From assembly GCA_051294375.1 (NCBI GenBank), contig CM119266.1, forward strand, positions 17,044,087-17,108,086: a DNA stretch of 64,000 bases, written 5' to 3'. This document shows positions 14,155 to 62,709 of the stretch, piece by piece. The translations under genes and the position numbers were made by a program. The stretch comes from Paraspadella gotoi. Taxonomy: Eukaryota > Animalia > Chaetognatha. The notes beneath the pieces are model-generated. The model made no database searches. It was not told where the DNA came from and saw only the letters and a program-made list of their open reading frames with translations. Every line of letters starts with the position of its first letter. The stretch's first letter is position 1.

Positions 14155-15746
14155 TACAAAAAATAAAGTAATAAAAGAAAGAAATGAAGAGAAAACACAA
14201 ATGTAAGAAAAATATGAAGAAAGAACAATAACAAAGTATGAAAAAAAGAACAACTCCTCTTAATTAAAATGACGACAACAATGAAAATCAAAATATTTAA
14301 ACATAAAAAAAAATCTTAAAAGTATAGTGATCTCGTCATTTTTTACTATCAAAGAAAATTACCAAAATCTAATTTGCATATTGCAGTAAATCATAATTAA
14401 ATGGAAATTCAAACAAAAAATATTTTAAACGAAATGAAACAAAGAAAATGGACACACATTTCAACTTCCTCCACTGCCTCACTAATGAAACTCGATAACT
14501 AGATAGTTAAAGAGTCGAAAAAATGCTGCAAGTTAAAAAAATTATGTAAGTTAAAAAAAATTATGCAAGTATAAAAAATTACTAATACTTAAGGGAGTGG
14601 TCTTTTCATACAATTGAAACATTCTTTTTCTTTTTTTTTTTTTGTGTCTGAATTAATAAACAATCTAATAATTATAAATATAATAAAATTTTGAAATATT
14701 TCCACTTCATTGATAGAAAATCAGGTACTCTGGGAGTGAATAAACGAGACTGTGAGAGAGTCTTGATTGAAAGCTTGCATGGACCTGCTATGTCATTATC
14801 TTTGTAAGAGTGATGGAGGCTTTAAACCACCAAAGCCTGTCCAAAGTCAGGGGCAAGATAGCTTATTTATTAAATGAATGGATAATTTTTATATTGGTTG
14901 TACCAATTTCATAAAAAAATTATGCAAGTTGAAAAAATTATGCAAGTTGAAAAAATTATGCAAGTTAAGAAAATTATGCAAGTTAAAAAAATTATGCAAA
15001 TTGAAAAAATTATGCTAGTTGAAAAAATTATGCAAATTAAAAAAATTATGCAAATTGAAAAAAGTATACAAGTTGAAAAAATTATGCAAGTTAAAAAATA
15101 ATGCAAGTTGCAAAAAATTATGCAAATTGAAAAAAATATGCGAGTTGAAAATTAAGCAAGTTGAAAAAATTAAGCAAGTTAAAAAAATTATGCAAGTTGA
15201 AAAAATTATGCAAGTTAAGAAAATTATGCAAGTTAAAAAAATTATGCAAATGAAAAATTATGCTAGTTGAAAAATTATGCAAATTAAAAAAATTATGCAA
15301 TTGAAAAAAGTATACAAGTTGAAAAAATTATGCAAGTTAAAAAATAAGCAAGTTGCAAAAAATTATGCAAATTGAAAAAAATATGCGAGTTGAAAAATTA
15401 AACAAGTTGAAAAAATTAAGCAAGTTAAAAAATTATGCAAGTTAAAAAATTATGCAAGTTGTGAAAAATTATGCAAGTTTAAAAAAGTATGCAAGTTGGC
15501 AAGATCAAAAGTGTGATGCCAACGACAACGACGACGACGACGTCACAAATCAGAATCAGAAGCAATAGCGACGGAGAAAAGAGAGAGAGAGAGAGAATAT
15601 ATAATTAAAAGAGAGATAGAGAAGCTGAACTCGTCCGGGAGCCTCGGAGGTAGCGCGAGCACCTCCCAATCCAAAGGACTCGGGTTCGCGCCCTGCTGAT
15701 GCAAAAAAAAAACTGAATAACAATTTTTTTGTAAAAAAAAAAGGAA

Positions 15747-28469: not shown

Positions 28470-28527
28470 CCTGAGCTTCGGATCAGGCTGTAACACCGTG
28501 TTACAGGCGGGATAATCGCCCCGTCCC
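28470..28527 (-). ncRNA. Type-P5 twister-like motif (family 4), one core substitution
   Basis: GG-GA-CGGG-GCGAT-TAT-CC-C-GC-CTGTAACA(cgg)TGTTACAG-CCTG-A-TCCG-AA-GC-T-CAGG. P2, P3, P4, T1 and T2 all pair; UAA reads UAU; P5 is not evident. Confidence 0.65.
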
Positions 28528-28542
28528 TCTTAGTCCACCATA

Positions 28543-28644
28543 CGAGGTTCTTTCCGTGTCAGCAAAAATAACAAAATACCAAATAGAATGCGTCTTAAAT
28601 TTGGTAGCTCTTTTGTTATTTTTGCTGACACGGAAAGAACCTCG
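28543..28644. mobile_element. 102-bp palindromic mariner-type MITE
   Basis: Perfect 34-bp inverted arms CGAGGTTCTTTCCGTGTCAGCAAAAATAACAAAA; TA on the left flank, AA on the right. Confidence 0.75.
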
Positions 28645-35440: not shown

Positions 35441-35740
35441 ATAGCTACAACCTGGTTTCTGTGTTGCCCAGCTGGGTGGGACTTCTAACTTGTCGGCGTT
35501 AGTGTCTTCCGACTCGTAGTAACGCTAAGTGTCACTGGCGCGGATACCCATGGTCAATTTCGCTTGTGCCAAGGTAGAGAGAGGTCGTTAGGACTGAAAA
35601 ACACATGGTTGGGATGATGCGTTCAACCCAATAGGATTGACTGAATGAAGTCGGAGTTGAAGCGGCGTAAATACACCGCCACAGGATCTCTCAGGTTCTC
35701 CAGGCCTTGGAGAGGTGTCTAACAAAACTGTTACTATAAG
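35441..35740 (-). mobile_element. Old diverged copy of the twister-TRIM (one LTR plus part of the internal region)
   Basis: Reverse complement aligns with 55836-56159; decayed twister with CCATGG at P1. Confidence 0.75.
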
Positions 35741-41800: not shown

Positions 41801-44800
41801 CATCAGTTGTTAACCTTATTATTTTTAACTTCTTACTTCTGAATAAACAATTTAATTTTATTAGCTGATGCTACCAGTGCCGTCGGTCTCGTAACTTATT
41901 AAAGTACCTTTCAATGATATATTGCATCATATTTAAAGCTTCTTCTGAGGAAGTGTTGCCAAAGACGAATCCCTCCACATAACAATGCGACAAGATCATT
42001 TTTGCAAAATTTGTGAAGCTTTCTAATGTCGTTTCTATTAATTTCAAAATTTAGAGATTCATAAGTGATAATCGCAATGATAGATCTGTGTAAGTTTTAA
42101 CACAAAGTTAATTCGGGTACAAATCATTATTCTGAGGCGACTTACGATCGGTCTCGATTCGCTTGTCGACTGGAGAATGCAAAGATGAATTTAAATAATA
42201 GTATTATTATATAATAGTACTATTATGATCGATCTCCACTCGGCCACGGATCAAAAATTTTAAAATAGTCCAAAAAGAATTTTTCCTGCTTTCCCGAATT
42301 AAATTTTTTTTTAAGTATAAAACTTTGGAAGGAGTTAAAGACAGGGATTTGGTTAAAGAATAGGTTAGGGATTTGGTTAAAGAATAGGTTAGGGATTTGG
42401 TTAAAGAATAGGTTAGAGATTAGGTTGAGGATTTGGTTACATATTCTTATTATTTCCCAACCCTACTCCCTAATCTTATTTCTTATTTAAGGATTTGAAT
42501 TAGGAATGAAGCTTAATAATTGTATTTAAAAAAAAATTAAACTTAAGTTGAAATTAAGTTTAGGGAACAGAAATGGGGCGCTTTTAAAAAATAGTGCGGC
42601 CATCACCTAACCCTGAAGAGTTACCCCGTCTCAGCTTTCAACCCTACCCTAACCCTAACCAGTAACCACGAACCCTAACCACTAACCAGTTCCACCGGTT
42701 CGTGACATCTCCCTCAACCATCTCTTAACGACCTTCTCCTTCAACCCTAACTGGGGCTTTCCATCTTTATCCGAGCCTCTCCTTAAATCCTAACCCTAAA
42801 CCGGGTATTTCATCCCTCGTTTTAAGGTTGAAAAAAATTATGAAAGTTCTAATTCTAAACTGACTCAATTTAAAAAAATGACGAAAATTAAAAAAATGAA
42901 GTAATTTGATAAAATATAAACAACTACTACAATCGCAACCATCAAAACAAACACCATCTTTAAAACAAGTACAGTATGGATACATATTACTCAATATAAA
43001 ATTGTTAAAATATCCTTATTGCCTACCTTTAACAATTTTCATTTCTTCCAGCGACGTTACCGATTGCGAATTCACAATGGCAGATCTCAACCCTTCAGCA
43101 AGCAATTCGGGCTCCGTTGCTGAATTGTGCAAATCTCGGCGACGCTCGATGCAGACGCTGGCGAAAACCGCTTCAGAGACTGAAAAGGACGCCAGCTAGA
43201 CAAAGGACAAAGGACCGATTTGACTTGGCTAAAATGAAAACACATAGTTATATATGAAATTTTATTTTTGTATTCCCCCAAGAATTCTGAATCATTTGCG
43301 GTTTCGGTCGCTCTTTAAGTACACCATTGGGTCTCAGTAAGGGGCAACGTCAGAGGCAGGATCTTGCAAAATAATGCTAGTAGGGTGACCCAAGGGAAGC
43401 CTTCTTTATAGCTCATACTATGATATATCATGAGTCTCGATCTATGTATTACCTCATCGACGATAGAATACCAAAGGGTTGACAACTTATGGTGAAATCC
43501 TTCTATTTCAAAAACCAGACTATTGAGTTGCGTATCTAGGTAAATAGTAATTTTACTATTTTAATAACTAATTTTTGTTTTTTGCGAGAGTGGCGCATCT
43601 TATTTCAATCAAACCGGCCCAAAGCCTAGATAGGATGAATCTGGTTATGGTAGAGGAAGCGTAGGGGGCATTGCCCAGTTCACCCTAGGGTTTTCCACGC
43701 CCCCTAAAAAGTTTATGGCTATTTTCATGGGTTAGGATGGCTTTAGCTTTGTTAAACCCAAAACATTTTTTGTTTAGGCACAGTTAACCAATAAATAAAT
43801 TATCTCCTAACTTTGGACAGGCTAAGGTGGTTTAAGGCCTCCATCACAATAACCAGATAATAACATACCAGGACCTAGTAAGCTTTCAATCAAGATTCTG
43901 TCTTGTTTATTCGCTTCCAAAGTACCTGGTATAATATTTCAAAAACAGACAAAAAGAATTTGTACAATAGATAATCGCTAAAGCAATTTACAAATTTTTA
44001 TATATATGTAGTATTTACCCGGTTTCCATTCACAAGTGACATAAAAATGCTTGCCTATTAAGCTTTATCATTCCATGAATATTTTTTTTCTCTCATCTTA
44101 TAGCAAAGAACTGGACGTTTATCATATTATTATATGATATATTATATAAAGAAACTGTATAAGTACTATAACGATGATCCATTTTTTTCTTCAGTAAAAA
44201 AAAAAAATTAAATTAATTACTCATTAATTACCTAAAATAATTGAAATTCATAAATACCATTAAATGAAGCATTAACTGGACATTAATTGGATGAATGGTA
44301 TAAAAATGAAAAAATTAAAATAATTATGGCAACAAACGGGTTGCCTGTGATGCCCATTGGGATGAAGCATCTCACTGTTAGCATTAGTGGGTTCCGACTC
44401 TCAGCGACGCCTCCTATCACTGGCGCGGTTACCCTTGGACGATTTCGCTTTGCCAATGCAGAGGGAAGTCATTAAGACTGTGGATTAGAACGTAGTGAAA
44501 GTTACATATCAAAATTCTAAATGTCAATTATAAACAACATACCATCAGTGAACATTAATTTATAAAAAAAATTAATTTTATGTTCTTCAATTTTTGCAGT
44601 AGGCTATATTTATATCTAGTCCTATCGAAACATTTTAAAATAGGCTCTTCTTAATTTTGATTGCAGATTTGAATTCCTCGTCAAAAGGTGATAAAAGAAA
44701 ATTATTTCTTTAAGTGGGTTAAAAATTAAAAAAACTATATTTAATAATAAAATTTTAATTTTCAGCTTAAAATATAGGTTTTTTTTATATTTGATCAACT

Positions 44801-47800
44801 TAATGAAAGAATTTTTAAAAAAGAGTTATATTTCTTCATATAAACTTTTCATGACGAATCTAAATCTGCAAAAAAATCTTATAAAAAACTATTTTGAAAT
44901 TTTAACATTTATTGGATTAATACTAGTATAAATATGGCCTACTGCGTGAATTTTAAAATTTATTATAACATTTTTTTATACATGAATGTTCATTAGTATA
45001 ATGTTGTTCGTTCCTCACTTTTAAAATTTTAATTAAAGTTAAATTTAGAATTTTTACTAGAACACAACGCTTGGGATGGTATGTTCCCCCTCTGAGCCAC
45101 TGGGATTAGCTGAATGATGATGTATGTGAGGCAGTGCGAATATACCGCCACAAAATAATCCAAAAATTATTATTCAAAAATTTCTTGTGGTATAAAATGT
45201 TCCTTTCAAGAACTTGCTTATAAAATGGTCTTTTTTTGCTAATTTTAAATTTTAATTTTAAAAGGAAAAAAGTACCAAAAATTCAGAGTAATTAATAAAT
45301 GAAACTTATATACAAAAAACGTCCTAAACTTCTCCAACTAATGATTCTTTATTAAATATTTGAATTATAATAAATATCTCCTTGGTTTCACTCGTGAACG
45401 GACACGTAGTATATTTTTTTGTTTTAAATAAAATATAAAAAAGTAGTTGTTTGAAAATGAAACATCCAATCATCAAAAACCTTGATATGAGAACCTATAT
45501 TTAGCTTTATATAATTATAATATTTAGTGAAGCATAGCATAAAAGGCTGGCTAGATAAAAACTGATATTGGAGAGGAGCTAACATATGTCAACATTGATA
45601 TCGCAAGTTGCGGCTTCAAAAAATTCGCTGTTCAGATGGATATGAAGGACTTCAATGAAAAGTTCCAACATGGCGGCCACGCGCGGATTCAAATGCACGT
45701 CAGGCGAGAGACAAAAATACAAGCAACTTCGAGGAAGCTGAAAACTGAAAATTAATATAATTAATATATTAAAAAATAGGCGATCCTGGAGTTGACTACG
45801 TTCTGGAGGCTTCTGGGAAAATGAGGAGGAAGAAGATATAATTTTAGTAGTGTTTATAAATAATTTTTTAAAAAACAAATTATTTTTCCGCATTGATGAA
45901 GGCTTACATTAAAGCAAAAATGTATCTTTTTTTATATTTTTAAAAAGTAGTATAGTAGTATAGTTTATAAATGCTAATAATTTTTTTTGATTCAAATATT
46001 GTTTTAAAAATTTAAATTACCATACACTTAATGATATTTAATTTTAAACTTATCCTTAACCTTAACCTTAACCCGCATTTACCCCTAACCCTAACTTACC
46101 CTTAACCCTAACTAGCTCTTACTTACCCTTAACCCGAATTTACCCTTAACCATAACTTTTCCTTAATATTAATTTACCTTTAATTTTAACTTACCTTAAC
46201 ATTACTTAACCATATCCTATTTTTAACTTTAAATTACCCTTCTTCTTAATTTACATTTAATCTTAAACTCTGTTAATTTATTAAGAAAAACCTTGCTTTT
46301 AATTTTCTTATAAGCCTCCAGAACGTATTCAACTCCAGGAATGCCAAAAAATATCCTCTGGAAAAAAAATAAAGCCGAAATTGGCAAAATAACTTAAAAA
46401 AACCAGTATAAAATATGAAAGAAACTATTTAAAAATGTGGGTTAATTTTTTACAAAAATTAAATAAAAGAGCTAAGTGAGCTGAAGACTATTATCGTAAC
46501 TTCTCGGCCCGCTTGGCAGTCATGAACTCATGGAAGGGGTCCTGAGCTTGGAACCAGGCTAGAGGGTTTACCAGGCCCTCAAAGCGGTTTACGGCTACAG
46601 TATAAGTACCAGTTTGGAATTAAACTAAATGAGCTACCGGATCACAACTGAAAGTGTCATGCTTAATTGCTTATAGGTGGGGTGAACTTATGCAATGCCC
46701 AACTACATATTAAGTTTTGTAATCTAAATTTTTAGTCGGATCTGCTTATCAGCAGATCTTGACTCTTTAATTCAATTTGTCGGTCCGTTGGTCCGCCCCC
46801 TCAATATTGTCGGGCACTCAATTATATCATGTCAGAACATCGAATTATGATAAATTATACAAAAAAAAATTATGTCCGTCCATCCGTCCCACCTTAGGAA
46901 AAAAACACCAATTACTCGTGATTGGATGGATGGATTGGAATGAAATTGATCCGACATTGTTTGCTCAAACTTGTTTCTTTATAAACTGTTATATTTTCTA
47001 TAATTTAAAGAATTAATGTTCAATTTTTTACATTTTTGTAGGACTAAGCTCTGACAAAGAAAGCCCAAGGTTTTTTTAATATATTCTTATACCGGCAAAG
47101 GTAGAATGATGGCAATATTGTTAATATTAAGTTTCAAAAAAATCCGACCATAAATATAAAAAATATTAACCAAAGTCTTCGGAAAATCCACCCCTTCTTT
47201 GGAAGATTTTCGCCATAGAAGATTTTTCCTGAATCTGACTCTCGGTTGAAAACTCTTAGAATTCCAATCGTTAGCTCCTCTTTTACTTTTACTTTAAATA
47301 AAAATTTCACCAAAATGGACTAATTCACTTTCATATGATCGTATCATATCAAAATAACCAAATAAAATGTAAAGAAAAATTTTGAGAGCCCTTCAGATAC
47401 TTTGCCAAAGGATTCCAAAATCGGACGTCATTTGTTGAACAGGAACATACCTCAGTCACGTTTATATCGTTTTCAAGGAAAAAAATCCCTTTCATTTCTA
47501 TATAAAATCAGAGATAAAAAAATTTTCTGTCCAGAAGCAGTCTATTTGTTCTGGCTTAACAAGTATTAAAAAACACTAGCTTTGCATTTTTAAATCCCAT
47601 TAATTAGCTTTACTCACCTTCCATCGATCTTCCACCATAATTTCCCGAATTTGTTCTCTTTCAGTAATTCTGGAGGAGCTCTTACATTGGTAAATTCCCC
47701 TTCCTTAAGTATAGAAAATCTTGAGGCTGAGAGAGCAATAGTGAGATAGAGTAAGAAAGAAACAAATAAAAAAATAAAACTATAAGTGTACCTTAAAGTT

Positions 47801-50800
47801 TAGACCAAGAAAAAATTTTTTTTTGATTTTATATTCATTTTGCTAAAAAATATAAGAAATGCTATGTCATTATCTTGTAAGAGTGATGGAGGCCTTAAAC
47901 CACCAAAGCCTGTCCAAAGTCAGGGGCAATATAGCTTATTTATTAAATGAATGGATAATTTTTATATTGGTTGTACCAATTTCATTGAATAATTGACAGC
48001 TTTTATCAACTTTTTGGGATTGTGAAGACGCAACGACTCGAGTAGTTTTCATCCTCGAAGATGATTCGTGAAATTAGCAATAACCAACAAATCACAAATC
48101 GCAATTTTTTTTTTAGAAATCGCAAAAAGAAGTACAAACGTTTTGAAAATTATTACATTTGAAATAATATCTCAATAAATGCTTTATGTACATTAACATT
48201 ATTTTTACGTTCTGCTTAATAAAAGATTTTGTTTGATGAAGACTAATATCCGTACTTTCTGTGCCCCATCGAAAGCAATGGAACGGGCTCTAGGCTTGGA
48301 ACCAGGTTTCAGGGCTTCACGGCCCTAAGGCAGTTTATGGCCATCCGCACACTTTCCGCAGGGTAGGTACCATTAGGGATGGGGATGAGGGTTACGGCTA
48401 AAGTAAGGTTAGGACTAGAGATTTGGGATCAGTTTAGAGTTAGGGTTACAGTCAATGATTAGGAATTAGGTTTAAGGATTGGGTTATATGTTTGGTAACA
48501 AATAGTTAAGTTTAAGTTAGGTTCATGGATTGAGTAACAGAATGGGGCGGTTTTGGAAAAGAGAGCCCAAATTGGTATCTAAAAGATATTTAAGAGCAAG
48601 ATATTTGGAAAAAATCAAGTAAAGAATAGTATGCTAGCAAAAAATAGTGTTTCTTGCGATCAGAAACAATGTTTAGTTATTAAATTTTGTTTCTAGTGAG
48701 TAAAATGCATTATTTTATATTTCACCGAGGTATTTATTTGCAGCTGGAAGATGAAACTCCTTGATCGTAGTTTTCTGTAACCATTGGGTCTTCATCTTGT
48801 CTCGCCACTCACCCAAGGAAGGGTCAACCCATGGGGTAAACATAGCGTCGTACCATCGCTCTTTTTCTGTGCATTCTGTAATAATAAATATAATAATAAT
48901 AATAATAATCTGTAATAATAAATAATTTTAACTTATCTTATAGTTTGTGTTTTTCTTTTCACTTTTTTTCACATCTACCTGGAGCAAAATTCGGTGAAAC
49001 CCACATCAAATTTACTTCACTCGGATTTAATTTTTCTAAAAAATAATATCAATTGTTAAAAACTTTTTAAACAAGAACAGGCAAGGTGAAGATATTTTAC
49101 CGCAGTGACTTTTTTTGTGTGCACATTTCCCTATAATCACATAATTACCCAAGTATGAAAAATATGCACAACAAGCAAGTTCAATCTTATTAACTAAAAT
49201 AACAAGTATTACATGAACTATGCCAAAGACTTTCTGACCGCATTTCTATGTTGCCAGGTGATTACACAAGTATGAAACATGCACAATAGAGCGTTTTCTA
49301 AAATGAAAATACACAAAAATATTTGGTAAAAAAAAAAATGCACAGATTACCCTTATAGTTATTTTGATCTATCGGTAGTCGGGCATTGCAATAAGTTCAT
49401 CTTGCTTATAAGCATGATACTTTCAGTCTTGACACAGTGTCTCACTATCTTTCAAAAGGCGTTTTAAATATTTAATATTTTGTAAGCATATTATTATAAA
49501 TATATTAAAATTTTTGTTTGGTTCCTATCAGTATAATAGTAAACTATTTTTAGTACTTAATAATTATAATAGGACTAAGCTCTGACGAACAAAGCCCAAG
49601 GTTTTTTTCATATATTCTTATACCGGCCAAGGTAGAATGATGGCAATATTGTTAATATTAAGTTTCAAAAAAATCCGACCATAAATATAGAAAATATTAA
49701 CCAAAATCTTCGGAAAATCAACCCCCTCTTTGGAAGATTTTCGCCATAGAAGATTTTTCCCGAATGTGATTCTCGGTTGAAAACTCCGATCGTTAGCTCC
49801 TCTTTTACTTTTACTTTAAATAAAAATTTCACCAAAATGGACTAATTCACTTTCCCATGATCGTATCATATCAAAATAACCAAATAAAATGTAAAAAAAA
49901 ATTTTGAAGCCCTTCAGACAGTTTGCCAAAGGATTCCAAAATTGGACATCATTTGTTGAACAGGAACATACCTTAGTCACGTTTATATCGTTTTCAAGAA
50001 AAAAAATCCCTTTCATTTCTATATAAAATCAGAGATAGAAAATTTTTCCGTCCAGAAGCAGTCTATTTGTTCTGGCTTGTTTGATATCAAGATGTTGATG
50101 ATTTGACAAGAGATCGGAATCAAGTGTTTTTACATCATATTTAACCAGAATTTTTACGAGGAGCGTTTATATTGTTTGGTAGTCAGATTTGAACGAAAAT
50201 CTCCATTGAAAAAGTCTTCCTCGATCTTTAAGAACGACGAAGACTCCTAATTATAACACTTCACATTTTAATATATTTCAAGTTAATTTTTTATTCTTGA
50301 GAGCTCCATTCAAATTCACAATGATACCACACCAGTCTACTAAGTATTTTATGAATAATGACGCATTAAATTTCTGGTCATTTGATCGTATTTTTAGGTA
50401 AGTACGTGACTGCACAAGTATTATACTTTTATACGTTAAAGGTCTAATTGTATACCTTTATACCAAATATTAAGCTTAAGCAGTTTTACCCAATTGAAAT
50501 AAAAGTGGGAACGACCGGTGGACAAACATACCAACTGACCGATCGACTAAAAAGTTATTGACTTGTTTCACGAGTACTCGTGGCGCAATAAAATCTTAAC
50601 AAGTATGGAATGGAGGGGTTTTTGAGACGAACCAAGAATTCTCCGAAGCATTTGAACATCGAAACGTCTGAGCAACTGTTTTCCACACAAAATCGAGTGC
50701 GGCGGATATCGACGAAGATTAACGCTTAACATCTCAACGTTGTCTACCGGGTCAATATCCTCCTGGAGTGTTTAAGATCATTACTAGGAGCTTTTTCATT

Positions 50801-53800
50801 CATTTCTTACTAACAGCATTTTGGTTCATATTCCTGATTTCTATAGAGATTTGCTATTTTGTCTTCTCCCACCTATTTTTCACTTGCATCGCTTTATACA
50901 AAATAGTACATTTGCTTGTTTTCAACATATTTTTCTAGAGGTACCATAAATAAGTGAAATTTATTTCTGTAACTGTTAGATCTTCCTTTGCACCTGTTTT
51001 TACACAAAATAGCAATTTCTTTTTAAATTTTTATCATTCCATATATCAATTTCTATCCTTCTAAATAATTTACAAATTTCTTAATCAACATCATTTTTTA
51101 AATGTTTTTATCTTAATTTTTTTTTTCTTACCCAATTTTTTAAAAAAAATAATGCAAGTTAAAAAAATAATACAAATTGAAAAATGATGCAAGTTTAAAA
51201 AATTATCCAAGTTAAAAAAATTATGCAAGTCGAAAAAATGATGCAAAATGTAGTATAGCAATATTAATTATATTTCTACCTTAAAAAATTAAAATTATCA
51301 TTAATTGTATTCTTATGATACGTAAGAAGCCTAGGCAGCAGAGCCTTAAAATTATTTTGTCATTTTTTTTAAACGCTTCTTTCGATTGTAACTGTATTGA
51401 ATGTCTTATAACCCATGTCCCGCTAGGGTTCAAGGTTTTCGAGCTATTTATTATTTGAGAACAGTAATATATAATAACAATAACATTTATAAAAAGCTCA
51501 AAATACTAATACTCCATAATATCAATATGTTAATAAAAATTTTGTAGCGCGCAATTAGATTATTTACAGCTTTATAATTTGCTTAAAATAAATATAAAAT
51601 TGAGCATCGTTGAATTGAAATAAATATACCTGCCACGTAAAAAGAATGTTGCTCATTTGTTTACGTTCTTCGTAAATGAGGTTGAGTTCGCTTTCCTCAG
51701 AATTTCGGAGCATATTAATATAAAAAAACAAAGCTGTTATGAGTTTATAAATAGAATTGTTTAAACATGATTGGATTTTTGTGAATCGCGTAAGTATTTT
51801 TTCCTTCCTAGCAAGATCTTTTTAGAAATCTATTCTTTGCATTCTGTTATTTTCTTATTAATCCTAAACTCCACTTAACTTCTTTTTCTTATGTGAAATC
51901 CTTTCTTTCGTTGTGTTGTAGATTATGAAAAAGTTTGAAATAGTTCAACAACGATTTTATTTTGAGACATAAACAATGGACATGGACATGTTTAATAAAC
52001 ATTGTCCATGTTGAACTATTTCAAACTTTTTCTAAACTTCTTTTTTTAAATTCTACTAATGTTCCATTGTCAAAAACGGAAAGTAAAATCCTTTGTTGAG
52101 AAAGTGATCCTATGTTTTATGCTAAAATTTGTTTTAATTACCTGTTAGAATTCCTAAGACCCGTTGCTGACCCTCATCAGTAAGTGAGAATGAAAGAGAA
52201 AACATATAACTGCCACTGCTGTCCTCAAAATTTCCACCTCCAAAGCCATACAAAATTTCCACGCACCACAATCTCGATTTTAAATAATGACCCAAACTAC
52301 CTTTAAGAAGAGATTATTCAAATTTCGGTAGAAGTTTAAATCAATTTTTTTAAATTTTGTGGTAAAGCCTAATACCACAAAGTGTGACAATATGCACGGT
52401 TTCTAGGAAAAATTTAGTATTATATTGACAGATATCACCCTTTCTCGATGAAAGAAATAACCTAAAATAGAACAAACTACAAAGTCAAAGATTTAAAATT
52501 TAACTTTTGAAAGGGTAAATTGTAAAATTAAAATAAATTATTTTTATTAAATATTGTTCATTAGTTTTACTTACGCTATTCATTTTTCTTTTTTAGAATT
52601 TTGATTCCAGATATATTTAGAATTTTCACTACGCTTTGATTTTCATACAAAAAATACAGAAACTACCTTGATTTTTTTATTCAGTCCTGCTAATGATTCA
52701 GAAATTGATTTTAATATCTCACCGTAGCCATCGTGCGTTAACAAAAAATATATAAAATCTGTTGTCTTCTCTTCCCACTGACAAAAAGGATTTTTTAATT
52801 ACGCCGCGAGTATTAACAGAGCAACTCTATAAGACACTTTGTTGTTGGTCGATCAGTATGTTTGTCTGTCCGTCAATATCCAATTTACGTTACAAATGTT
52901 TAATAAAAGGTAATGTATCAAACTTATGTAGTCACGTGATCACATGACCAAAAATTCAAGGTGGCACAATTCATGAATTATTTATTTAATTAATTAGTTA
53001 ATTATTTAGTTAGTTAATTATTTAGTTAATTCTTGATAAATTTATACGAAATTTTATATTATTGTATGTATTGTATGTGTATATTGTAAGCGACGTATAT
53101 GGTCAAGCGATTAGAAAGAAATGCGGCAAAGTTTGTATAACATTTGGTTATTTAAGTCATTGTATGTTTTTTTTTTTTCGTTGAAGTTGTGATTAAGAGG
53201 AGAGGTTTTTTTTTTAAATTAAAATTTTTTTTTTTTTATTTCAGTTAATAAATGAGCAACCAAAAAATTCTTATGTTGCATATCTTTTATACTTAGGTAG
53301 TCATGAGATTAGCGTGAAATGCATCCAGGAAAGGAAGTCACTCCGGCGCAACGCCTTGAACTTGCCGGTTCTAGTTTGTTTTTTTTTTGTAGACACAATC
53401 AATATTTTCTGAGTTAATTACATTCTGTCGCATTGAAGGAAGGCACCAGGTTACAATAAGTTGGTTAATGGTTGCAACTGGCGTTACTTTTATCGGACGA
53501 CAAAAGAGAGAATTAACATAGGGTAGCTGAAAACTATCCTTGGAGAAATCAGGCATCATCACCGTTCCATATTCTGGAATTTTGGAGAACAATTCGCACA
53601 CCTGTTATCAAAAAAAATTTAATGAAATTGTAACTTGATCTAAGAATATCTATGAATAGAGAGAGGCAGGATTTTATGCCTCTACTAGGTTAAAATAATC
53701 TGTAAAAAATTAATTCGGGGCCCAAAAAGTTTTTTTTGAGGGTAAACCTTATTTAAATTAATTTAAAGCTTGCAGGGTAAGGCGTAATTATGGTTGCCTA

Positions 53801-56800
53801 TCAAAATTCGAGTAGTCGATTGTGAATATGTAAGCGAGAATTTAAAAATAGTTTTTGTAACTTAACTACACAATGGCTTTTGGATGTAATAAGAATCATA
53901 CCCATTTTTCCAGAGTGTCAAGCGATTTACCAGCTTGAACTGCCAATGTCATATTTGAAGCACAATAATACTTATTAAAGAACTCTCTTAAGAATTTTTC
54001 CAAATCCAAACCAAAGATAGAAGGAGTTTCGCGAAGTGTTTTTCTGAAAGGAATTTAAAATTAATCGCAAAAGTACGACCAATATTAGTAGCAGGGAGGC
54101 AGACAGAACCAAAAGAAAACCGTCTTCGGAAGTAAAAGGAGTGTAAAGCGAGTGTTTGCTATAGGTTTTAGACACCACCACATAAAAAGTCTAACTTTAG
54201 TTGTCCTTGTACCTGCTATACCCTCCCCACAAGTGCATTTTTAGATAATTTTAAAACGGAAAGTTATAAATTTTTTTAAACATGCAGAGTAGAGTGGAGC
54301 ACTCAAGAACAAAAAATTTATTTGAATGATCGAACAATGATATTTAGATGTGAGATAGTATGATGATTGCAGAGTGCATTAAGGAGACAGAATTTTAAAA
54401 TAAACGCTTACTTGCTTCCATCCACAAATCGTGACATTGGGTGATTTTTTCGTATCATGCTTTTTAGCACCTAAAAATATAATTAATAAAAGAGTTGTTT
54501 CAGTCAATTAACAAAGATAATTATAGAATTACTTTGTTCATATTGTTTGGGAAACAAAACTAACAAATATAGTAAATTATTAAAATAATTGGTGTGGTTC
54601 TAGTTGGTTGGCGAGGACCCCCATTGGCGACCTCGCCAGTGATAAAAGTAGTGAATATAATGAAAGGCGTGAGGCTCGCGGCTGATGTTGAGGCACGGGG
54701 ATAAACGCATCACTCACGGGCCCCAACCCTAACCCTAACCCGGGCCTCCCGTTCAACTCCATGGCTCTCCCCCAACCCTGACCCGGGCCTGGGCCTCCCG
54801 TACATCTCCGTGCCTCAACCCTAACCATAACCACCTTCGACGTAACCTTGGGCCCCTCCCAACTCGGGCCTACAGTTTAACTCCATGCCTCTCCCCCAAC
54901 CCTAACCCGGGCCTCCAGTTCAACTCCATGCCTCTCCCACAACCCTAACCCGGGCAGGGGCCTCCCGTACATCTCCATGCCTCAACCCTAAATGTTAACG
55001 ATGTAGTAAAAAAGCTCACCTGAATCACTCTTTCATCATCATCTTGTTTCGTTTTGCAAAACTCACTGAAAAGTTAAATTATTTATTTTCATTTAGATAA
55101 TTTTATATGTTCTATTAGCCGAATCAGATCAATATAAATGCAGAAAATGTTTGACTATTTTCTATGCTTCTTGGGTTGTATCAAATAATATTTAAATATT
55201 ATTGTGATATAAATCCTTTCTTTTCGTTGTTTGGGACGATTAGAGACAGTTTGAGTTTAGTTTTGACAACGATTTTTATTTAATTCAAAACAGACATGTT
55301 TCGGCTTCATTTCAAGCCTTCATCAGCGTTGTGAAAAAATACAAAAAATATAGAAAAATGGAAAAGATGGTTAATCATATAGTGTGTTCTTAAAAATGTA
55401 TAAAATTTTATTTTATCTTGTGGCGGTATATTCACACCGCCTAACGTCCTCCTTCGTTCAGCCAAATCCATTGGCTCAGAGGGGGAACACACCATCCCAG
55501 GTGTAGTGTTCCATCCACAGTCCTAACGACTTCCCTCTGTTTTGGCAAAGCGAGACCGTCCTAGGGTAACCGCGCCAGTGACTGGAGGCGTCACTGAGGG
55601 TCGGAAGCCCCCAAAGCCAACAGTGAGATGCCCCATCCCAATGGGCATCACAGGCAACCCGGCTGTTGCTATAAGTGGTGAGCCCTACTATCGAACATGC
55701 AACCTTCTCAGGGTACGCTACAACAAATGTCTATGCCCTGCCAACTTTGGGTACGCTACGACAAATGCCTATGCCCCTGGGGTATGCTACAACAAATGCC
55801 TGTGCCCCACAACTCGCACTCTCTCTCTCTCCCACTATGGTAACAGTCTTGTCAGACACCTCACAGGCTAGAGGAACCTGAGTTATGTCTTGGCCCAGGG
55901 ATTCTGTGGTGGTATATTCACACCGCCTCATGTCCTCCATCGTTTAGCCAAATCCAATGGCTCAGAGGGGGAACACTCCATCCCAGGCGTAGTGTTCCAT
56001 CCACAATCCTAATGACTTCCCTCTGCGTTGGCAAAGCGAGACCGACCTAGGGTAATCGCGCCTGTGACTGGAGGCGTCACTGAGGGTCGGAAGCCCCAAA
56101 AGTCAACTGTGAGATGCCCCATCCCAATGGGCATCACAGGCAACCCGGCTGTTGCCACAATCTACTCATTAGCGGAAAAACGAAAATGGAGTTTTCTACA
56201 ACGATTTGTTTTATTTAACTATGAACATGTTTCGACTTGTAATTTCAAGTCTTCATAAGCATTTTTATCAATTTTCGTTTTTCCTCTAACCTTCTTACAC
56301 AACGAAACGAAAGGATAAATTCAATAGATCTACTCATTATAAATTTTGGACTCGCCATAATGAGTCAGGTTACCTTCACTTACACATACATTTCATACAT
56401 TACATTCTATATTTAGTACCATTTTGTATACGAACAGGTCATCCATAATTTAAGGTTAAAAAGTATCTGGTACTGGGCACTAATGAATCTGATGATAAAC
56501 AAAATACGTACCTGTCAACAATTTGTATTTCTTTATCAATCCTTTCCGGTTTCAGCAAAGGATCTATAAAAAACTAAAGAAATAATAATGTTCAAAATTT
56601 AAAAGTTAGTTTTAGGAGAGAATTCTGTAAGGTTATAATGGTAAATAGAAGGTTACAGATTTGATTCTCTGAATTAGTTTTATTAAAAGGATTTTTTATG
56701 ATTTATAAATGTGCAGTTTTTACAATAAAAAGTACATAAATATATTCATTATTGGTCTTACCAATTTAATAAGTAACTCTCTGACAATATTAATTATGCA

Positions 56801-59800
56801 GCTGTGACTACTGGACACAGTAACAAAAGAATTTAGATCACTTATAAGGAATACAACAAATTATAAAATTACTTGAGCGAATCTCGACATTGATTGTTTT
56901 AAACCATCAACATTAACTTTAAATTGAAAGGTAGTTTCCTCAAGATCAGTCCAAGCGTTACAAGAGCCTCCATTTCTATTGTAAAGATCTCTTGTTAGCT
57001 GGCATATTGTTCATCTTTTTAAAGACGGTTCTTCTTTTACTTTTTTTTAACCGCAATTCACGCAGTACAAGCATTTAAAAAACTGCTGTAATTGGGGCTT
57101 TTTAAGCCTGATATGGACAATTTTTATGAATGTATCACTATAGAGAACTATAGAATCCAAAACACACAACTCTCACTTAGAATAGATCAACTTTCTCATA
57201 CTTCCAAAGAGTGAACGTGCAGAAGGCAAGGGGAGACAAGTGAGCCCAATGGTAATGTATTCTAACTCTTTTGGGGAGACCCCCATGTATTAGATGAGGA
57301 ATATATATATATATAATATATACTTTGTGTATAAACTATAAATCTTATATAAAATTTTAGAATTCAAATTTAAATTTTGCTTTTTAAATAAATGAATAAA
57401 TGATGAAAGCCTAATGAGTAATGTTAATCCCCTAAAAAATCGGAAAGTCCCTGTGTATTATTATTTTATGGAAGTATATATATCGTATTAGTAGTTTTCA
57501 ACTATTGTATAAATCTATTTCTACAAAATTTTTATTTGTTTAATAGGCAAATTCTTGTATTGATATAGTACATTTTATAACTAACTTGTCCAAAAATATA
57601 TCGAATTCTCCAATTTCTGGATAACGTTTACTACCAAGAAATAGAACGTGTTCCAATAAATGTGCTAGACCTGCGAAAAATAATTATTATTATTGATTTA
57701 TTATTAATGCAATTGTAGCTCGTATTGCCCAGGTTCATCCCGCCAATCGAAGTAAAGACCAGTTTGAATAAAACGCTAAATGGGCTAAAGAAGACTTGTT
57801 GATAAGGCGCTAAGCAGGGGCGGCGAGAGGGGGTAACACCCTCGCCTCAGGCCAGGGCCCCAGGAGGGCCCCCTCATGGTTAAAAATAAGCGCTAAATCT
57901 CATCTAGTCAGAAGGTTTAACAAATTTAGACCCCTCGCTCAGACTAGAGAGGCGCAATGATTGTGATTTAAAAAAAGTTTCAGTAAAACACCAATGCCAT
58001 GATGCAAGTCCTGGAGCCATAAGTTTGAGCACTGGAGCAATTTTCAAGGCAGAAAGTCCGTAATCGAAAACTAAAATCTAAAATTATGGAGAGCAGGGGG
58101 TGGGCCGGCAAGGGGGCCAGTGGAGGGGTCCGCCATTTTCTCTCGCCGCCCCTGGCGCTAAGACTATTCTCAACTTCTTTAAACCCCTGTCGCAGCAACG
58201 AAATCCCTTGCTTGGAACCTGGCTTGAGTTTTTTAAAGCCTCCAAAACGGTTTAAGGCCATTTTCACGCAATGTCCTCTATATGTCCAGGATTTTAACCC
58301 ACCCTACGGCTGTTTCCAGTGAAGAGAGGGGAGCAATCTTCAGCAAGTCCAGGGGACTGGAATTAGAAGAATGGCATATGCTTGACAGGAAGGGCTTACC
58401 AGTGTGGATAAGGCATTAAGTGGGCTGAAGATGCTTGCTTGCTAGCTTTTTTAAGTTATTATTTTTTTATCATTTTCATTAATTTTTTTATCAAATATTG
58501 ATAAAAACGAAGAGCAGTTTTTCATACTAATAGAAAAGTACTTGACTTTTTTTTTCCAATTCGTACATTCCAGCAAAGGATAGTTTCTATGTTATAAACA
58601 TTTTCCTAAGAGGGTAAATTTCCAAAGAAGAATTTTTTACTTGGAAATTTCTACTTTGAAAGTGGATCTTACTATCAATCCTTTAGTTCCCATTAAAACA
58701 ATTGAATTTTTTTTCATGCTTCATTTTTATAATTATTAAGATACTGTAGTAATTGTATCGGGATATAATATGAATAATACTTAATAATAATCATTACGTT
58801 TTCCATTTAAAATCTATTAAAAAAAATTCAGCTTGGGGACGACTTTGTTGATAAATAATAGTTACCTTAGTAAATAAGTTGGGTTTTACATGAAATTTTT
58901 TTTAATAATAACAAATCATCGAACTGACTTTTTATCAATATTTTTTAAAATTTTTATAACAGTTACTTCATAATCAGCGTTAAAAATTGTTAAATTGTTA
59001 AAAACTTAAAATTTGGACGAAAAAAAATGAAGAAAAGTGACTCCGCGCTTGAAAGCCACCGTGAAATTTGAACATTCTTTTAGGTCAACATAAACGTCAA
59101 GTAGTTTTTTAACTAATAAAGGCAATAAAAATAATATTCCATGAAAGAATTACGAGTTTAATCAAGTCTTTTTGTATCGCTCCCGATCAAGTCCCTGTAG
59201 TCAGTTAGTTACCCAAAATACTATCAGGGTCACAAAAGGACCCAACGCCGACAGTGAGGGCCACCGCGGCCAAGTTTTCTTCCCTGATGGCCGAGGACAT
59301 TTTTTTGTCTCTTTTTCCCGGTTTCCTTCTGTTGCAGACCGGAGCGGAAGATCGCGGTTTGAAGTGTCTTATAGCTGCGGTTATTAGAAGTGGTAAATTG
59401 GTAATACGTAAAATTGTTCTCTGCCTTTCTGCTTTTCTCACCCGTTTTATTATTCAACCTTTTGTTCAGTTTTTCGGATCGCGGAATATTTTCTGGACCC
59501 TCCAAACTAGTATAGGAATGCTCATCATTGGATTCGTTCCTGCTGGTTGACTCTAACACGAAGGGTTTCGATACCTGTTGTTAAAAAACGCTTATATTAA
59601 CTTATCTAACTACAATGCAGGTAATTTTGCTAAATGACTTTAACGCTGGGCTTCACGTAGTCTTCAATCAGTATAGCGGTTAGGCCATTATGCAGCTTGA
59701 TTATTCTATAGTTTTTCTTGTCGCATGGCGACTGAATTGGCGAATCTAGCAGCGTTACTTGCTGTGTAACCTTCCAACGGGGCATTTTAGATCTATTCTG

Positions 59801-59923
59801 ACAATCGCTATTTTTTAAATATAATTTCTAAGGATTGGCCAAAGGATATAAAAGTTTAATTGAATAACTTACGCAAAAGTTGGGAATATTCTTACACTCT
59901 CTACCGCGAAACATATGAAGCAT
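35861..59923 (-). CDS. NRDC: Nardilysin-like (insulysin family, M16A) zinc metallopeptidase, about 28 exons
   Basis: Exons include 59873-59923 (tentative start), 59639-59827 SPCDKKNYRIIKLHNGL, 59442-59574, 59213-59374 AAVALTVGVGSFCDP, 57586-57670 GLAHLLEHVLFLGS (HxxEH), 56873-56975 GGSCNAWT, 56512-56573 and 55020-55065 VDSEF, 54412-54470, 53902-54043, 53422-53601, ~52142-52300 LTDEG, ~48726-48876 FHLPAANKY, 41300-41521 and 40086-40208 LRSKEQLGY, and 35861-36201 RKLSVHV..DIQEFK..TGA. An insertion after ILIED points to nardilysin rather than IDE. Confidence 0.88.
38090..38360. repeat. Foldback TTAGGG-like repeat
   Basis: G-rich GGGTTAGGGTTGAGGG then C-rich AAACCTAACC; related to 5820-6120. Confidence 0.6.
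40552..40819 (-). mobile_element. Twister-bearing element family 2, copy 1 of a tandem pair (twister 40603-40667)
   Basis: Intact P5 TTATCTTGT/GCAAGATAG, T1 TGGA/TCCA, T2 AC/GT and P1 palindrome AGGCCT. Confidence 0.8.
40877..41123 (-). mobile_element. Twister-bearing element family 2, copy 2 of a tandem pair (twister 40928-40992)
   Basis: Nearly identical to 40552-40798, offset by 325 bp. Confidence 0.8.
42340..42810. repeat. 24-bp tandem (GGGATTTGGTTAAAGAATAGGTTA x3) plus a TAACCC-like tract
   Basis: Direct repeats at 42345-42420; CCCTAA-like units at 42600-42810. Confidence 0.7.
43790..43940 (-). mobile_element. Diverged family-2 element with a conserved twister core (43800-43860)
   Basis: TTATCT..GT-GA-TGGA-GGCCT-TAA-AC-C-AC-CTTAG-CCT-G-TCCA-AA-GT-T-AGG-AGATAA. 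Confidence 0.75.
44325..45152 (-). mobile_element. Solo LTR of the twister-TRIM, split by a ~570-bp AT-rich foldback element
   Basis: 44325-44491 and ~45058-45152 match the LTR. The insert has nested imperfect inverted repeats; the twister core is mutated. Confidence 0.8.
45779..46346. mobile_element. MITE with ~33-bp TIRs and an internal (TAACCC)-like array
   Basis: TCCTGGAGTTGACTACGTTCTGGAGGCTT versus AAGCCTCCAGAACGTATTCAACTCCAGGA. Confidence 0.8.
46470..46710 (-). mobile_element. Family-3 element with a decayed twister-like motif
   Basis: TAA-AC-C-GC..GAGGG/CCCTC..CCTG-GTTCCAAGCT-CAGG; related copies at 48255-48355 and 58160-58430. Confidence 0.55.
47038..47558. repeat. ~520-bp direct duplication; second copy at ~49569-50078
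   Basis: Both begin TAGGACTAAGCTCTGAC and end CAGTCTATTTGTTCTGGCTT; they sit in different introns. Confidence 0.85.
47860..47985 (+). mobile_element. 5'-truncated family-2 element consisting mostly of the twister (47870-47934)
   Basis: Same core and same 3' end as 14582-14912. Confidence 0.8.
48290..48350 (-). ncRNA. Type-P5 twister-like motif (family 3), probably inactive
   Basis: GT-GC-GGAT-GGCCA-TAA-AC-T-GC-C-TTAGGGC/GCCCTGA-..CTG-G-TTCC-AA-GC-C-TAG; P1 palindrome TGGCCA. Confidence 0.55.
51928..52031. repeat. Inverted repeat of pseudo-LTR-like sequence
   Basis: AAAAGTTTGAAATAGTTCAACA / TGTTGAACTATTTCAAACTTTT. Confidence 0.7.
54592..54990 (-). mobile_element. Second copy of the TTAGGG-like-containing element
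   Basis: Reverse complement of 22185-22598. Confidence 0.7.
55293..55326 (-). ncRNA. Minimal type I hammerhead ribozyme (Penelope pseudo-LTR type)
   Basis: CTGATGA-A-GGCTT(gaaatg)AAGCC-GAAAC-AT-GTC; palindromic stem III ACATGT; stem I TTCACAACG/TGTTTTGAA. Confidence 0.85.
55542..55620 (+). ncRNA. Type-P5 twister ribozyme in the 5' LTR (predicted cleavage 55567/55568)
   Basis: TTGGC-AAA-GCGA-GA-CCGT-CCTAGGG-TAA-CCGC-GC-CAGTGAC(..)GTCACTG-A-GGG-TCGG-AA-GC-CCC-..GCCAA. Confidence 0.8.
56027..56107 (+). ncRNA. Type-P5 twister ribozyme in the 3' LTR (predicted cleavage 56053/56054)
   Basis: P5 GTTGGC/GTCAAC, P2 GCGA/TCGC, T1 CCGA/TCGG, T2 GC/GC, P4 GGG/CCC; catalytic GA and UAA present. Confidence 0.85.
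56223..56259 (-). ncRNA. Decayed hammerhead (CUGA to CUUA)
   Basis: CTTATGA-A-GACTTG(aaatta)CAAGTC-GAAACATGTT. Confidence 0.65.
57815..58154. mobile_element. hAT-type MITE, 340 bp
   Basis: 15-bp TIR CAGGGGCGGCGAGAG / CTCTCGCCGCCCCTG and a perfect 8-bp TSD GCGCTAAG. Confidence 0.9.
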
Positions 59924-60163
59924 TCTTTATTTCTAATTTTAATAATTTTAGTGGTGTTAATGTATGAAATAATTTCCAATTCAGAAAGAATTATTTTATT
60001 TTTACTTCTTCGTACATGTTTCGGACGTAATTAGCATTACGTTTATGACATATCAGTTAACCGTTTAAAATTGTTATTTTAATAAATAACGAGTAAAATC
60101 GGTTAATTTTACTATAATAACTTAATATTATAAGAGTAAAAAAGATACAAATTTTAAAAAAGG

Positions 60164-62022
60164 TGCAAGTTGAAGAACAAGATGCAAGTTGAAGAACAAG
60201 ATGCAAGTTGAAGAAACAAGATGCAAGTTGAAGAACAAGATGCAAGTTGAAGAACAAGATGCAAGTTGAAGAACAAGATGCAAGTTGAAGAACAAGATGC
60301 AAGTTGAAAAACAAGATGCAAGTTGAAGAACAAGATGCAAGTTGAAGAACAAGATGCAAGTTTGAAGAAACAAGATGCAAGTTGAAGAACAAGATGCAAG
60401 TTGAAGAACAAGATGCAAGTTGAAAAAACAAGATGCAAGTTGAAGAACAATATGCAAGTTGAAGAACAAGATGCAAGTTGAAGAACAAGATGCAAGTTGA
60501 AGAACAAGATGCCAGTTGAAGAACAAGATGCCAGTTGAAGAACAAGATGCCAGTTGAAGAACAAGATGCAAGATGAAGAACAATATGCAAGTTGAAGAAC
60601 AAGATGCAAGTTGAAGAACAAGATGCCAGTTGAAGAACAAGATGCAAGTTGAAGAACAAGATGCCAGTTGAAGAACAAGATGCAAGTTGAAGAACAAGAT
60701 GCAAGTTGAAGAACAAGATGCAAGTTGAAGAACAAGATGCAAGTTGAAGAACAAGATGCAAGTTGAAGAACAAGATGCAAGTTGAAGAACAAGATGCAAA
60801 GTTGAAGAACAAGATGCAGTTGAAGAACAAGATGCAAGTTGAAGAACAAGATGCAAGTTGAAGAACAAGATGCAAGTTGAAGAACAAGATGCAAGTTGAA
60901 GAACAAGATGCGAGTTGAAGAACAAGATGCAAGTTGAAGAACAAGATGCGAGTTGAAGAACAAGATGCAAGTTGAAGAACAAGATGCAAGTTGAAGAACA
61001 AGATGCAGTTGAAGAACAAGATGCAAGTTGAAGAACAAGATGCAGTTGAAGAACAAGATGCAAGTTGAAGAACAAGATGCAAGTTGAAGAACAAGATGCA
61101 GTTGAAGAACAAGATGCAAGTTGAAGAACAAGATGCAAGTTGAAGAACAAGATGCAAGTTGAAGAACAAGATGCAAGTTGAAGAACCAAGATGCAAGTTG
61201 AAGAACAAGATGCAAGTTGAAGAACAAGATGCAAGTTGAAGAACAAGATGCAAGTTGAAGAACAAGATGCAAGTTGAAGAACAAGATGCAAGTTGAAGAA
61301 CAAGATGCAAGTTGAAGAACAAGATGCAAGTTGAAGAAACAAGATGCAAGTTGAAGAACAAGATGCAAGTTGAAGAACAAGATGCAAGTTGAAGAACAAG
61401 ATGCAAGTTGAAGAACAAGATGCAAGTTGAAGAACAAGATGCAAGTTGAAGAACAAGATGCAAGTTGAAGAACAAGATGCAAGTTGAAGAACAAGATGCA
61501 AGTTGAAGAACAAGATGCAAGTTGAAGAAACAAGATGCAAGTTGAAGAACAAGATGCAAGTTGAAGAACAAGATGCAAGTTGAAGAACAAGATGCAAGTT
61601 GAAGAACAAGATGCAAGTTGAAGAAACAAGATGCAAGTTGAAGAACAAGATGCAAGTTGAAGAACAAGATGCAAGTTGAAGAACAAGATGCAAGTTGAAG
61701 AACAAGATGCAAGTTGAAGAACAAGATGCAAGTTGAAGAACAAGATGCAAGTTGAAGAACAAGATGCAAGTTGAAGAACAAGATGCAAGTTGAAGAACAA
61801 GATGCAAGTTGAAGAACAAGATGCAAGTTGAAGAACAAGATGCAAGTTGAAGAACAAGATGCAAGTTGAAGAACAAGATGCAAGTTGAAGAACAAGATGC
61901 AAGTTGAAGAACAAGATGCAAGTTGAAGAACAAATGCAAGTTGAAGAACAAATGCAAGTTGAAAGAACAAGATGCAAGTTGAAGAACAAAATGCAAGTTG
62001 AAGAACAAAATGCAAGTTGAAG
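60164..62022. repeat. 19-bp tandem satellite (GCAAGTTGAAGAACAAGAT), about 98 copies
   Basis: Highly homogeneous array with occasional 1-bp indels and substitutions. Confidence 0.97.
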
Positions 62023-62709
62023 GAAAAGAGGGAATTTGAAAAAAAGAGGCAAGCTCTGTCAAAATCGTTTCAACACCCTTAGCGCAATCATAACCTTCAT
62101 AACAGCCTACACAGCATACTGAAAGATGCTGAGGGGAGAGCATTTAAATAAATCATAAACTTATAATTTGATAAAGCAATGTGGTTACCAGGATAGAGGC
62201 TCCCCTACCGCCAGAAACTTTCTCTCCCCCGGGTTTTCTCTTCCCTCTCCTCATCCCCGAAACACAAATATAGGTTCTTGGAGATGGGCATCACAACAGC
62301 TCTCTAGGTCTCGGGGTCCATGAAACTTCCCTCTCCCTTCTCCCCTTTTTACCATCTAAAAAAATTAAAATGTTTAAGAATTTACATTAGATTTTTTTTC
62401 AGTAGCTTCTGCTTCCATTTTTTCGTAGGTCAAATAGTTTAGAAGTTAGAGGCTAAAAAAGATCGCTTCCTCAAGTGAAAATGGCAAAAAAAAATCATAT
62501 TTAGTTTTCTATTATTTTTAATATTGAATTATTTGTTTTTAATTCAAATTGAGTTATTTTTTTTCATTTTTTTAATTTTGGGAATGCCAGAGGCAGGGCA
62601 CCTCTCTTTGTTTCATAAAGGTGCCATTGTAGCTTTCAGAAAAGATGCGTAACATCAGCAGCGGGGCTAAAAAAGTGTAGAAAAACATATCACCGTCATA
62701 CCTCAATTC

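Follow-up and report, generated by a model that had tools for sequence, protein, structure and literature searches.

A 64,000-nucleotide stretch of the genome of the chaetognath Paraspadella gotoi (GenBank assembly GCA_051294375.1, contig CM119266.1, positions 17,044,087 to 17,108,086; hereafter the window, with positions counted from its first letter) carries four families of repeats that, judged from their sequence, have the fold of type-P5 twister ribozymes and are predicted to cleave themselves. The two main copies belong to a non-coding element of 741 bp (55419-56159, + strand), one in each of its long terminal repeats (LTRs). At the place of the P1 stem, these folds have a linker of six or eight nucleotides, palindromic in most copies and barely able to pair within one molecule. 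From the sequences and modelled folds we favour, with modest confidence, a reading in which the two copies of a transcript would swap strands through one shared palindromic P1 and would cleave far better than a lone copy, although the pair would not be strictly required. An earlier interpretation of the same DNA from its letters alone (the sequence-only reading) had proposed such a swap, and had made cleavage depend on it.

Twister folds in the window

In each LTR the strands follow in the order P5', P2', GA, T1', linker, UAA, P2, T2, P3, P4, L4, P4', P5, which is the permuted order with the termini in P5, a stem of 5+3 bp in LTR copy A and of 7 bp in family 2. Fold A occupies 55538-55623 (+), with P2' at 55550-55553, GA at 55554-55555, T1' at 55556-55558 and UAA from 55567, followed by P2, T2, P3, P4/L4 and the second strand of P5. 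Fold B lies 486 nt downstream (56024-56109, +) and was found both by our descriptor and by a sub-threshold match to the Rfam twister-P1 model (56049-56121, E 0.012). Pseudoknot T1, three Watson-Crick pairs between L4 and the strand after GA, is fully paired in each of its versions (CCG/CGG, UGG/CCA, CGG/CCG and GGA/UCC), and T2 has two pairs, GC/GC in families 1, 3 and 4 and AC/GU in family 2. P4 has 3-5 bp with covariation, and P2 is longest in LTR B (4 bp), has 3 bp and a C.A in LTR A and just 2 bp in families 2-4. That T1, T2, P2 and P4 change their letters between the four families yet stay paired is the best evidence for a genuine fold. The GA before T1' and the (U)AA are intact in both LTR copies and in five family-2 copies, and are damaged in the copies at 48337, 28514, 44400 and 35548.

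The tolerant descriptor, which permitted P1 linkers of 3-30 nt, matched nine sites in the window, spread over the four families, versus none in 40 locally shuffled windows; it was tuned after the matches were known, and the contrast is therefore optimistic. It replaced an earlier tolerant scan, in which weak matches could not be told apart from those of shuffled sequence, each shuffle giving one hit at 37-39. No Rfam match in the window reached the gathering score, and the sub-threshold matches (56049-56121 and four family-2 copies) scored 30.8 bits versus a gathering score of 67.2 for twister-P1 and 25.2-25.8 versus 37.6 for Twister-P5.

Family 2 comprises a tandem pair with a 325-nt period on the minus strand (copy 1 at 40938-40980, copy 2 at 40613-40655) and a solo copy at 47882-47924 (+), all with the linker AGGCCU, a solo copy with the wobble-paired linker AGGCUU (14809-14851, +), and a diverged solo copy that retains AGGCCU (43806-43848, -); the last was found by the descriptor, the others also by sub-threshold Rfam matches. 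The descriptor likewise gave the family-4 fold (48290-48351, -), which has the exact palindrome UGGCCA and, with its GA changed to GC, is likely inactive, and the family-3 fold (28470-28528, -), with an 8-bp P3, a 5-bp P4, the non-palindromic linker GGCGAU and UAA changed to UAU. Two decayed family-1 copies, which the descriptor scan did not pick up, complete the set, one at 35500-35563 (-, linker ACCAUGGG, GA and UAA damaged, ∼69% identity to the LTR) and the other at 44387-44448 (-, linker UCCAAGGG, a broken palindrome, 87% identity to the LTR over 162 nt), whose catalytic G, T2' and P4 are damaged as well. The sequence-only reading had named the LTR copies, family 2 and the copies at 35548 and 48340, the last two of which have damaged catalytic cores, and had overlooked the twister at 28514.

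A palindrome in place of P1

The descriptor and folding energies define linker A (UCCUAGGG, 55559-55566, +), a centred palindrome with U.G ends and a predicted cut after U55567, and linker B (ACCUAGGG, 56045-56052, +), with a predicted cut after U56053; the first linker position is U in most copies among contigs of public sequencing runs, unlike in linker B. Every palindrome follows the 3' strand of pseudoknot T1 and precedes the UAA triplet of the cleavage site: CCTAGG at 55560-55565 and 56046-56051, CCATGG at 35548-35553, TGGCCA at 48338-48343, and AGGCCT at 40642, 40967, 43835 and 47890. We took T1' as 3 nt, as in the Rfam models and in agreement with phage twisters, in which the P1 hairpin mostly runs from the first linker base. 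The linker then measures 6 nt (AGGCCU, UGGCCA) or 8 nt ((U/A)CCUAGGG, ACCAUGGG), as it does at nine of nine descriptor sites, and the palindrome is exactly centred. The gap of 5-7 nt given by the sequence-only reading came from a 4-nt T1' and had the palindrome merely overlapping it; the four palindromes that it named are all present, whereas two non-palindromic copies and one wobble copy had escaped it.

Among the readable linkers, eight of eleven are perfect 6-bp palindromes, one is wobble-paired and two are unpaired, a count that excludes the copy at 46590 (5' part decayed) and a piece at 6731 (3' part deleted). Within family 2, four of the five whole copies have AGGCCU and the remaining one AGGCUU (14817-14822). 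The 6731 piece was considered as a family-2 copy ending at the cut site and rejected, the remainder of the ribozyme having been deleted there. A relative of the 48337 twister at 46530-46595 (-) has P3, P4 and L4 intact and its 5' part decayed.

Within one molecule, P1 is predicted not to form beyond 1-2 bp, at +1.6 to +5.6 kcal/mol and thus always at positive energy, as the minimal P1 of the sequence-only reading implied. The self-duplex of the palindromic linkers is predicted at -9.1 to -11.2 kcal/mol. The arrangement known from dimer-dependent ribozymes, a minimal stem with a palindromic loop beside the cleavage site, is thus present here.

The twisters of prokaryotes and phages offer a comparison. 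Control scans, restricted to type-P5 twisters with a canonical L4 and open to linkers from 3 nt, returned 76 viral and 58 prokaryote loci (134), from which 27 distinct sequences passed the pairing filters; two were dropped, a junction of tandem type-P1 twisters (L086) and a poor match (L078). All 25 kept twisters, several of them close relatives, have linkers of 14-26 nt that fold at -8.3 to -20.2 kcal/mol. Solitary type-P5 twisters thus retain a strong P1, and those of the window could get one only via a second copy. A short-linker scan of viral contigs gave 16 loci, namely five without T1 pairing, two tandem type-P1 junctions, and nine from one phage family with a twister-like motif, a 10-nt non-palindromic linker and a P4 that is not clear. 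Family-1-like folds with a free linker were sought in metagenomes, where none of the 10 loci had a paired T1 and all were judged chance; viral scans gave no relatives of family 1 (11 loci, L4 in none) or of family 2 (one locus, judged chance). In phage L026 (also L031, L086 and L104), two type-P1 twisters lie head to tail at ∼500, and 6 nt separate the first T1' from the second UAA in such pairs.

A proposed strand-swapped fold of two copies

Two pairs of copies lie on the same strand, the LTR pair 486 nt apart and the family-2 pair 325 nt apart. In the proposed fold, P5', P2', GA and T1' of one copy, its 5' half, would come together with the stretch from UAA to P4, the 3' half, of its partner, the two palindromes would form one shared P1 of 6-8 bp, and each hybrid core would gain an ordinary P1. 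Because both P1 strands come from an identical repeated sequence, a palindrome alone can form the shared stem. As computed, the swapped fold is fully nested, with P5, P2, shared P1, P2 and P5 around the spacer, and direct evaluation makes it more stable than two separate folds by 11.6 kcal/mol for the LTR pair and 10.6 kcal/mol for the family-2 pair; without P1 the advantage drops to ∼1.2 kcal/mol. A constrained fold of the LTR pair gives a swap advantage of 14.3 kcal/mol. Pseudoknots, identical in swapped and separate folds, were left out of these energies. The strand swap of the sequence-only reading thus finds computed support.

Viewed from the unit between the cuts, the inner core would amount to a type-P1 twister of the ordinary kind whose P5 loop is large, and a single hybrid core would be enough to keep both ends of the 486-nt unit together. 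By analogy with plant retrozymes (PMC4918200), two cuts would free this unit with 5'-OH and cyclic-phosphate ends, and it might then be closed into a circle and reverse-transcribed with the help of an autonomous LTR element.

Variation and probable selection of the linker

The inner pairs of the linker differ between families (CUAG, CAUG, GGCC), though they are impossible inside a single copy, and in the relic at 35548 both central bases are altered with the palindrome preserved. Palindromic 6-mers occupy 2.2% of window positions. In our chance model the closing pair or pairs were granted as selectable in cis, the two inner pairs were given 1/16, and lineages rather than copies were counted; the resulting probability is 0.011 (two of three lineages) or 0.0009 (three of four), to be multiplied by ∼1/3 for the central double change of the relic, and these figures are generous because the pattern was seen before it was tested. 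In one public run (X1), none of the outer linker positions 55559, 55560, 55565 and 55566 has a variant at or above 1%, and the palindrome is kept in at least ∼90% of the depth; two P3-loop positions vary at ∼20% in the same run. Selection on linker self-complementarity is supported by the four palindromes, one of them with both central bases changed; the evidence of the contigs is mixed. One rearranged and diverged X1 contig has CCGCGG at the place of the linker, which hints at linkage between the central changes to G and to C.

Several observations weigh against the strand-swapped pair. Two of the eleven linkers are not palindromic, CCAAGG at 44432-44439 and GGCGAU at 28514. The first sits in a decayed copy (87% identity to the LTR, three other core lesions), and its palindrome was probably lost through decay, but the copy at 28514 is otherwise nearly intact, its linker self-duplex reaches just -2.5, and it is a fair counter-example. 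The lineages number just 3-4, two of which (families 2 and 4) have GGCC in common and are perhaps a single one. In X1 the centre varies, with T55562G at 2.1% (29 contigs), A55563C at 2.6% (40) and A55563T at 2.6% (34), and T55562A, the partner required for CCAUGG, stays below 1% in four of four runs, which leaves the centre unpaired in some copies. When the two-LTR RNA is folded without constraints, its energy minimum lacks both ribozymes as well as the linker duplex (pair probabilities 0.0; pseudoknots not modelled), and during transcription the first copy would fold alone and then have to rearrange.

Some published experiments point the same way. Twisters without P1 cleave at a near wild-type rate (PMC5408937), flaws in P1 did not go with lower cleavage when 1948 natural twisters were scored (PMC11662667), the rice twister is robust to mutation of P1 (PMC5113685), and in the hatchet ribozyme a palindrome dimerises the RNA while mutants without it cut equally (PMC6561176). 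In the tests of P1 tolerance the ends were free or the twisters were of type P1, unlike the 6-nt tethered loop of the window; the literature pool of the large survey consists of type-P1 twisters with free ends (PMC11662667). Work on Schistosoma calls cleavage without P1 inefficient and ties the make-up of P1 to activity (PMC8501958). In the nearest parallel, axolotl hammerheads with a helix III of 1-2 bp are weak as monomers and much better as dimers; a palindromic tetraloop closes off their 1-bp helix III, and a 2-bp form cut 22% in an hour alone (PMC7229834). Taken together, a strict need for pairing is probably not what these twisters have.

The LTR element and its host gene

The element is bounded by a 5' LTR with the ends TG...TA (55419-55673, +) and a 3' LTR with the ends TG...CA (55905-56159, +), delimited by repeat comparison and inspection of their ends and 92.8% identical over 251 nt. 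A 4-bp target-site duplication, ATCT, is read in the flanks at 55415-55418 and 56160-56163, and a segment resembling a primer-binding site (PBS) begins with TGG two bases past the 5' LTR (55676-55685, +). There is no tRNA gene in the window to match this segment, no clear polypurine tract upstream of the 3' LTR on inspection, and no Pfam match for the single internal open reading frame (ORF) above 100 aa. Two LTRs, a 4-bp target duplication and the lack of a coding region make up the layout of an LTR retrozyme; Rfam scans gave no match to a type III hammerhead in the LTRs, and the twister fold stands there instead. Contigs matching the element number 8,339 in run X1 and 2,877 in a second run, X5 (depth was not used as copy number), and at the LTR ends many of them continue into unrelated A+T-rich flanks, which makes the element a dispersed and abundant family. 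None of the public runs listed with the element is recorded as RNA, and X9 and X10, which may be RNA, were left aside as evidence of expression. Two pieces on the minus strand, 45045-45156 and 44324-44485, ∼570 nt apart, jointly cover most of one family-1 LTR and are possibly a single solo LTR interrupted by an insertion.

Pfam matches on exon-like ORFs outline a peptidase M16 gene of the insulin-degrading enzyme/nardilysin type on the minus strand (40037-59827); its many introns and the telomere-type CCCTAA units of the window fit an animal host. Profile matches follow in order at 56864-57010 (E 9.3e-7), 53899-54054, 50571-50771, 48718-48927 and 45582-45770, with weaker ones at 43318, 41874 and 40037. 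By these predicted exons, the LTR element sits in an intron of the M16 gene and antisense to it. The intact family-2 pair is sense to the gene and lies between two weakly supported exons, probably in a host intron. Among the sense-strand solo copies, three are damaged and one (43834) has an intact core. With the LTR pair antisense and an intact family-2 pair sense, the suggestion of the sequence-only reading that solo copies in introns are kept quiet finds no support in the window.

Other repeats

The family-2 repeat is a 325-nt unit seen at 40544-41123, 14690-14916, 47860-47986 and 43790-43929. Its longer copies mostly share a 3' end ∼90 nt beyond the predicted cut, with varying 5' ends, a pattern that resembles a non-LTR retrozyme or a Penelope-type tail. 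The 86 window ORFs compared with Pfam, a subset of all, gave no match to a reverse transcriptase, and nothing among them tied families 2-4 to a Penelope/Naiad element. The family-3 fold at 28470-28528 adjoins a long inverted repeat (28540-28647). G+C-rich repeats with CCCTAA telomere-type units at 54720-54990 and ∼5950-6000 contain CCATGG and AGGCCT and failed the twister scans, and long minisatellites with 19-nt and 18-nt units occupy 60057-62143 and 14860-15430.

Alternative explanations

The alternative that survives best, although we consider it unlikely, takes these copies for ordinary monomers with a minimal P1, in which the linker is a short tether with one or two closing pairs and the palindromes reflect chance and shared ancestry. 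It accords with the dispensability of P1 in the tested twisters, with the two non-palindromic copies, the variable centre in public-run contigs and the few independent lineages, and the 10-nt linker of the phage family (nine of 16 loci), with its unclear P4, would be a parallel. It has more difficulty with palindromes that differ between families, with the double central change of the relic and a nominal chance of 0.01-0.0003, and with the long P1 hairpins that solitary type-P5 twisters retain.

At the other extreme stands a copy-counting twister, used by animal retroelements of the LTR as well as the tandem-repeat type and active only as a two-copy strand swap via the palindromic P1, with full-length RNA cut to units and solo copies and circles left uncut; this we also hold to be unlikely. 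An obligate dimer, whose single copy would be essentially inactive, with only two-copy RNA being cut and solo copies and circular monomers protected, appears a shade less likely still. Families 2 and 4 can form one A-U pair at most in cis (+5.6 kcal/mol for family 2), and as family 2 also has a P2 of 2 bp, its monomer may be poor. Hammerheads with a palindromic stem III in Penelope-like elements (PLEs) are likely inactive as monomers (PMC6765202), and since many independent insertions stop at LTR ends, solo copies are likely common. Yet the cleavage of P1-less twisters is nearly as fast as that of the wild type (PMC5408937), a 6-8 nt linker can hold a closing pair and a tetraloop, and the intact family-2 pair is sense in a probable host intron, an arrangement which an obligate dimer would predict to be harmful. 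The claim of the sequence-only reading that cleavage needs two copies fares poorly for the same reasons, as P1-less twisters are active (PMC5408937), P1 flaws are tolerated (PMC11662667) and the hatchet dimer is unneeded (PMC6561176).

The linker could also serve RNA dimerisation of another sort. In retroviruses, dimer-initiation loops engage in kissing-loop pairing for packaging or template switching. That the palindrome is selected for such a role, or to prevent mispairing of the G-rich linker, while the cores cut singly, is the most improbable of these alternatives, for although the hatchet palindrome drives dimers without catalytic gain (PMC6561176), monomer folds pair the linker G-run with P4' or extend T1 into P4, and the element has LTR-type ends, the exact P1 register is kept in all families, even in family 2, which lacks LTR features, and packaging needs no such register.

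Relation to known ribozymes and retrozymes

The window twisters share with the type-P5 twister (RF02684; PMC5408937) the ends in P5, P2, P4, both pseudoknots, GA, UAA and sub-threshold Rfam matches; unlike it, they have a palindrome of 6-8 nt rather than a P1 hairpin of 14-26 nt, score below the gathering threshold and occur in animal repeats. The strand-swapped pair that we favour would work like the dimeric hammerheads of PLEs and amphibian retrozymes, but in the twister class. Those minimal hammerheads (PMC6765202, PMC7229834, PMC7761336) likewise have a cleavage-side helix of 1-2 bp with a palindromic loop and a tandem repeat, and two copies can complete the shortened helix. The ribozyme class is another one, and dimer activity, shown for the hammerheads, is predicted for the window twisters; as twisters can do without P1 in vitro, pairing may bring them less than it brings hammerheads. 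The hatchet dimer (PMC6561176) similarly has a short palindrome that triggers a strand-swapped ribozyme dimer, but its palindrome, described as non-conserved, is no requirement for cleavage, whereas that of the window takes the place of a conserved stem and turns up repeatedly in different letters.

As a mobile element, the 741-bp repeat resembles plant LTR retrozymes (PMC4918200) in being non-coding, with a ribozyme in each LTR, a 4-bp target duplication and a PBS-like segment after the 5' LTR; it differs in having a twister instead of a type III hammerhead, an animal host and no clear polypurine tract. LTR retrozymes have been described as mainly plant elements (10.64898/2026.07.22.740005). 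The Perere-3 variants of Schistosoma (PMC8501958) are also twisters with an altered P1 linked to a retroelement, but they are type-P1, stand at the 5' end of a non-LTR element and take P1 partly from the target site; neither "dimer" nor "palindrom" occurs in that paper. The literature searched, which left most subscription papers outside, contained neither an LTR retrozyme with a twister nor a natural twister that is dimeric or has a palindromic P1, and the sole twister dimer met in it is a crystal artefact.

If the strand-swapped pair is real, a second, unrelated ribozyme class would have converged on the dimeric-hammerhead solution of Penelope-like elements, and there would be a possible reason why nature conserves a P1 that twisters can spare in vitro. 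The pair would also predict genomic twisters that Rfam and descriptors with a hairpin P1 have overlooked, and a twister that needs a second copy to switch on would offer a simple RNA device with two inputs and a candidate for making circular RNA. Should the copy-counting form hold, the element would be the first twister-bearing LTR retrozyme in an animal.

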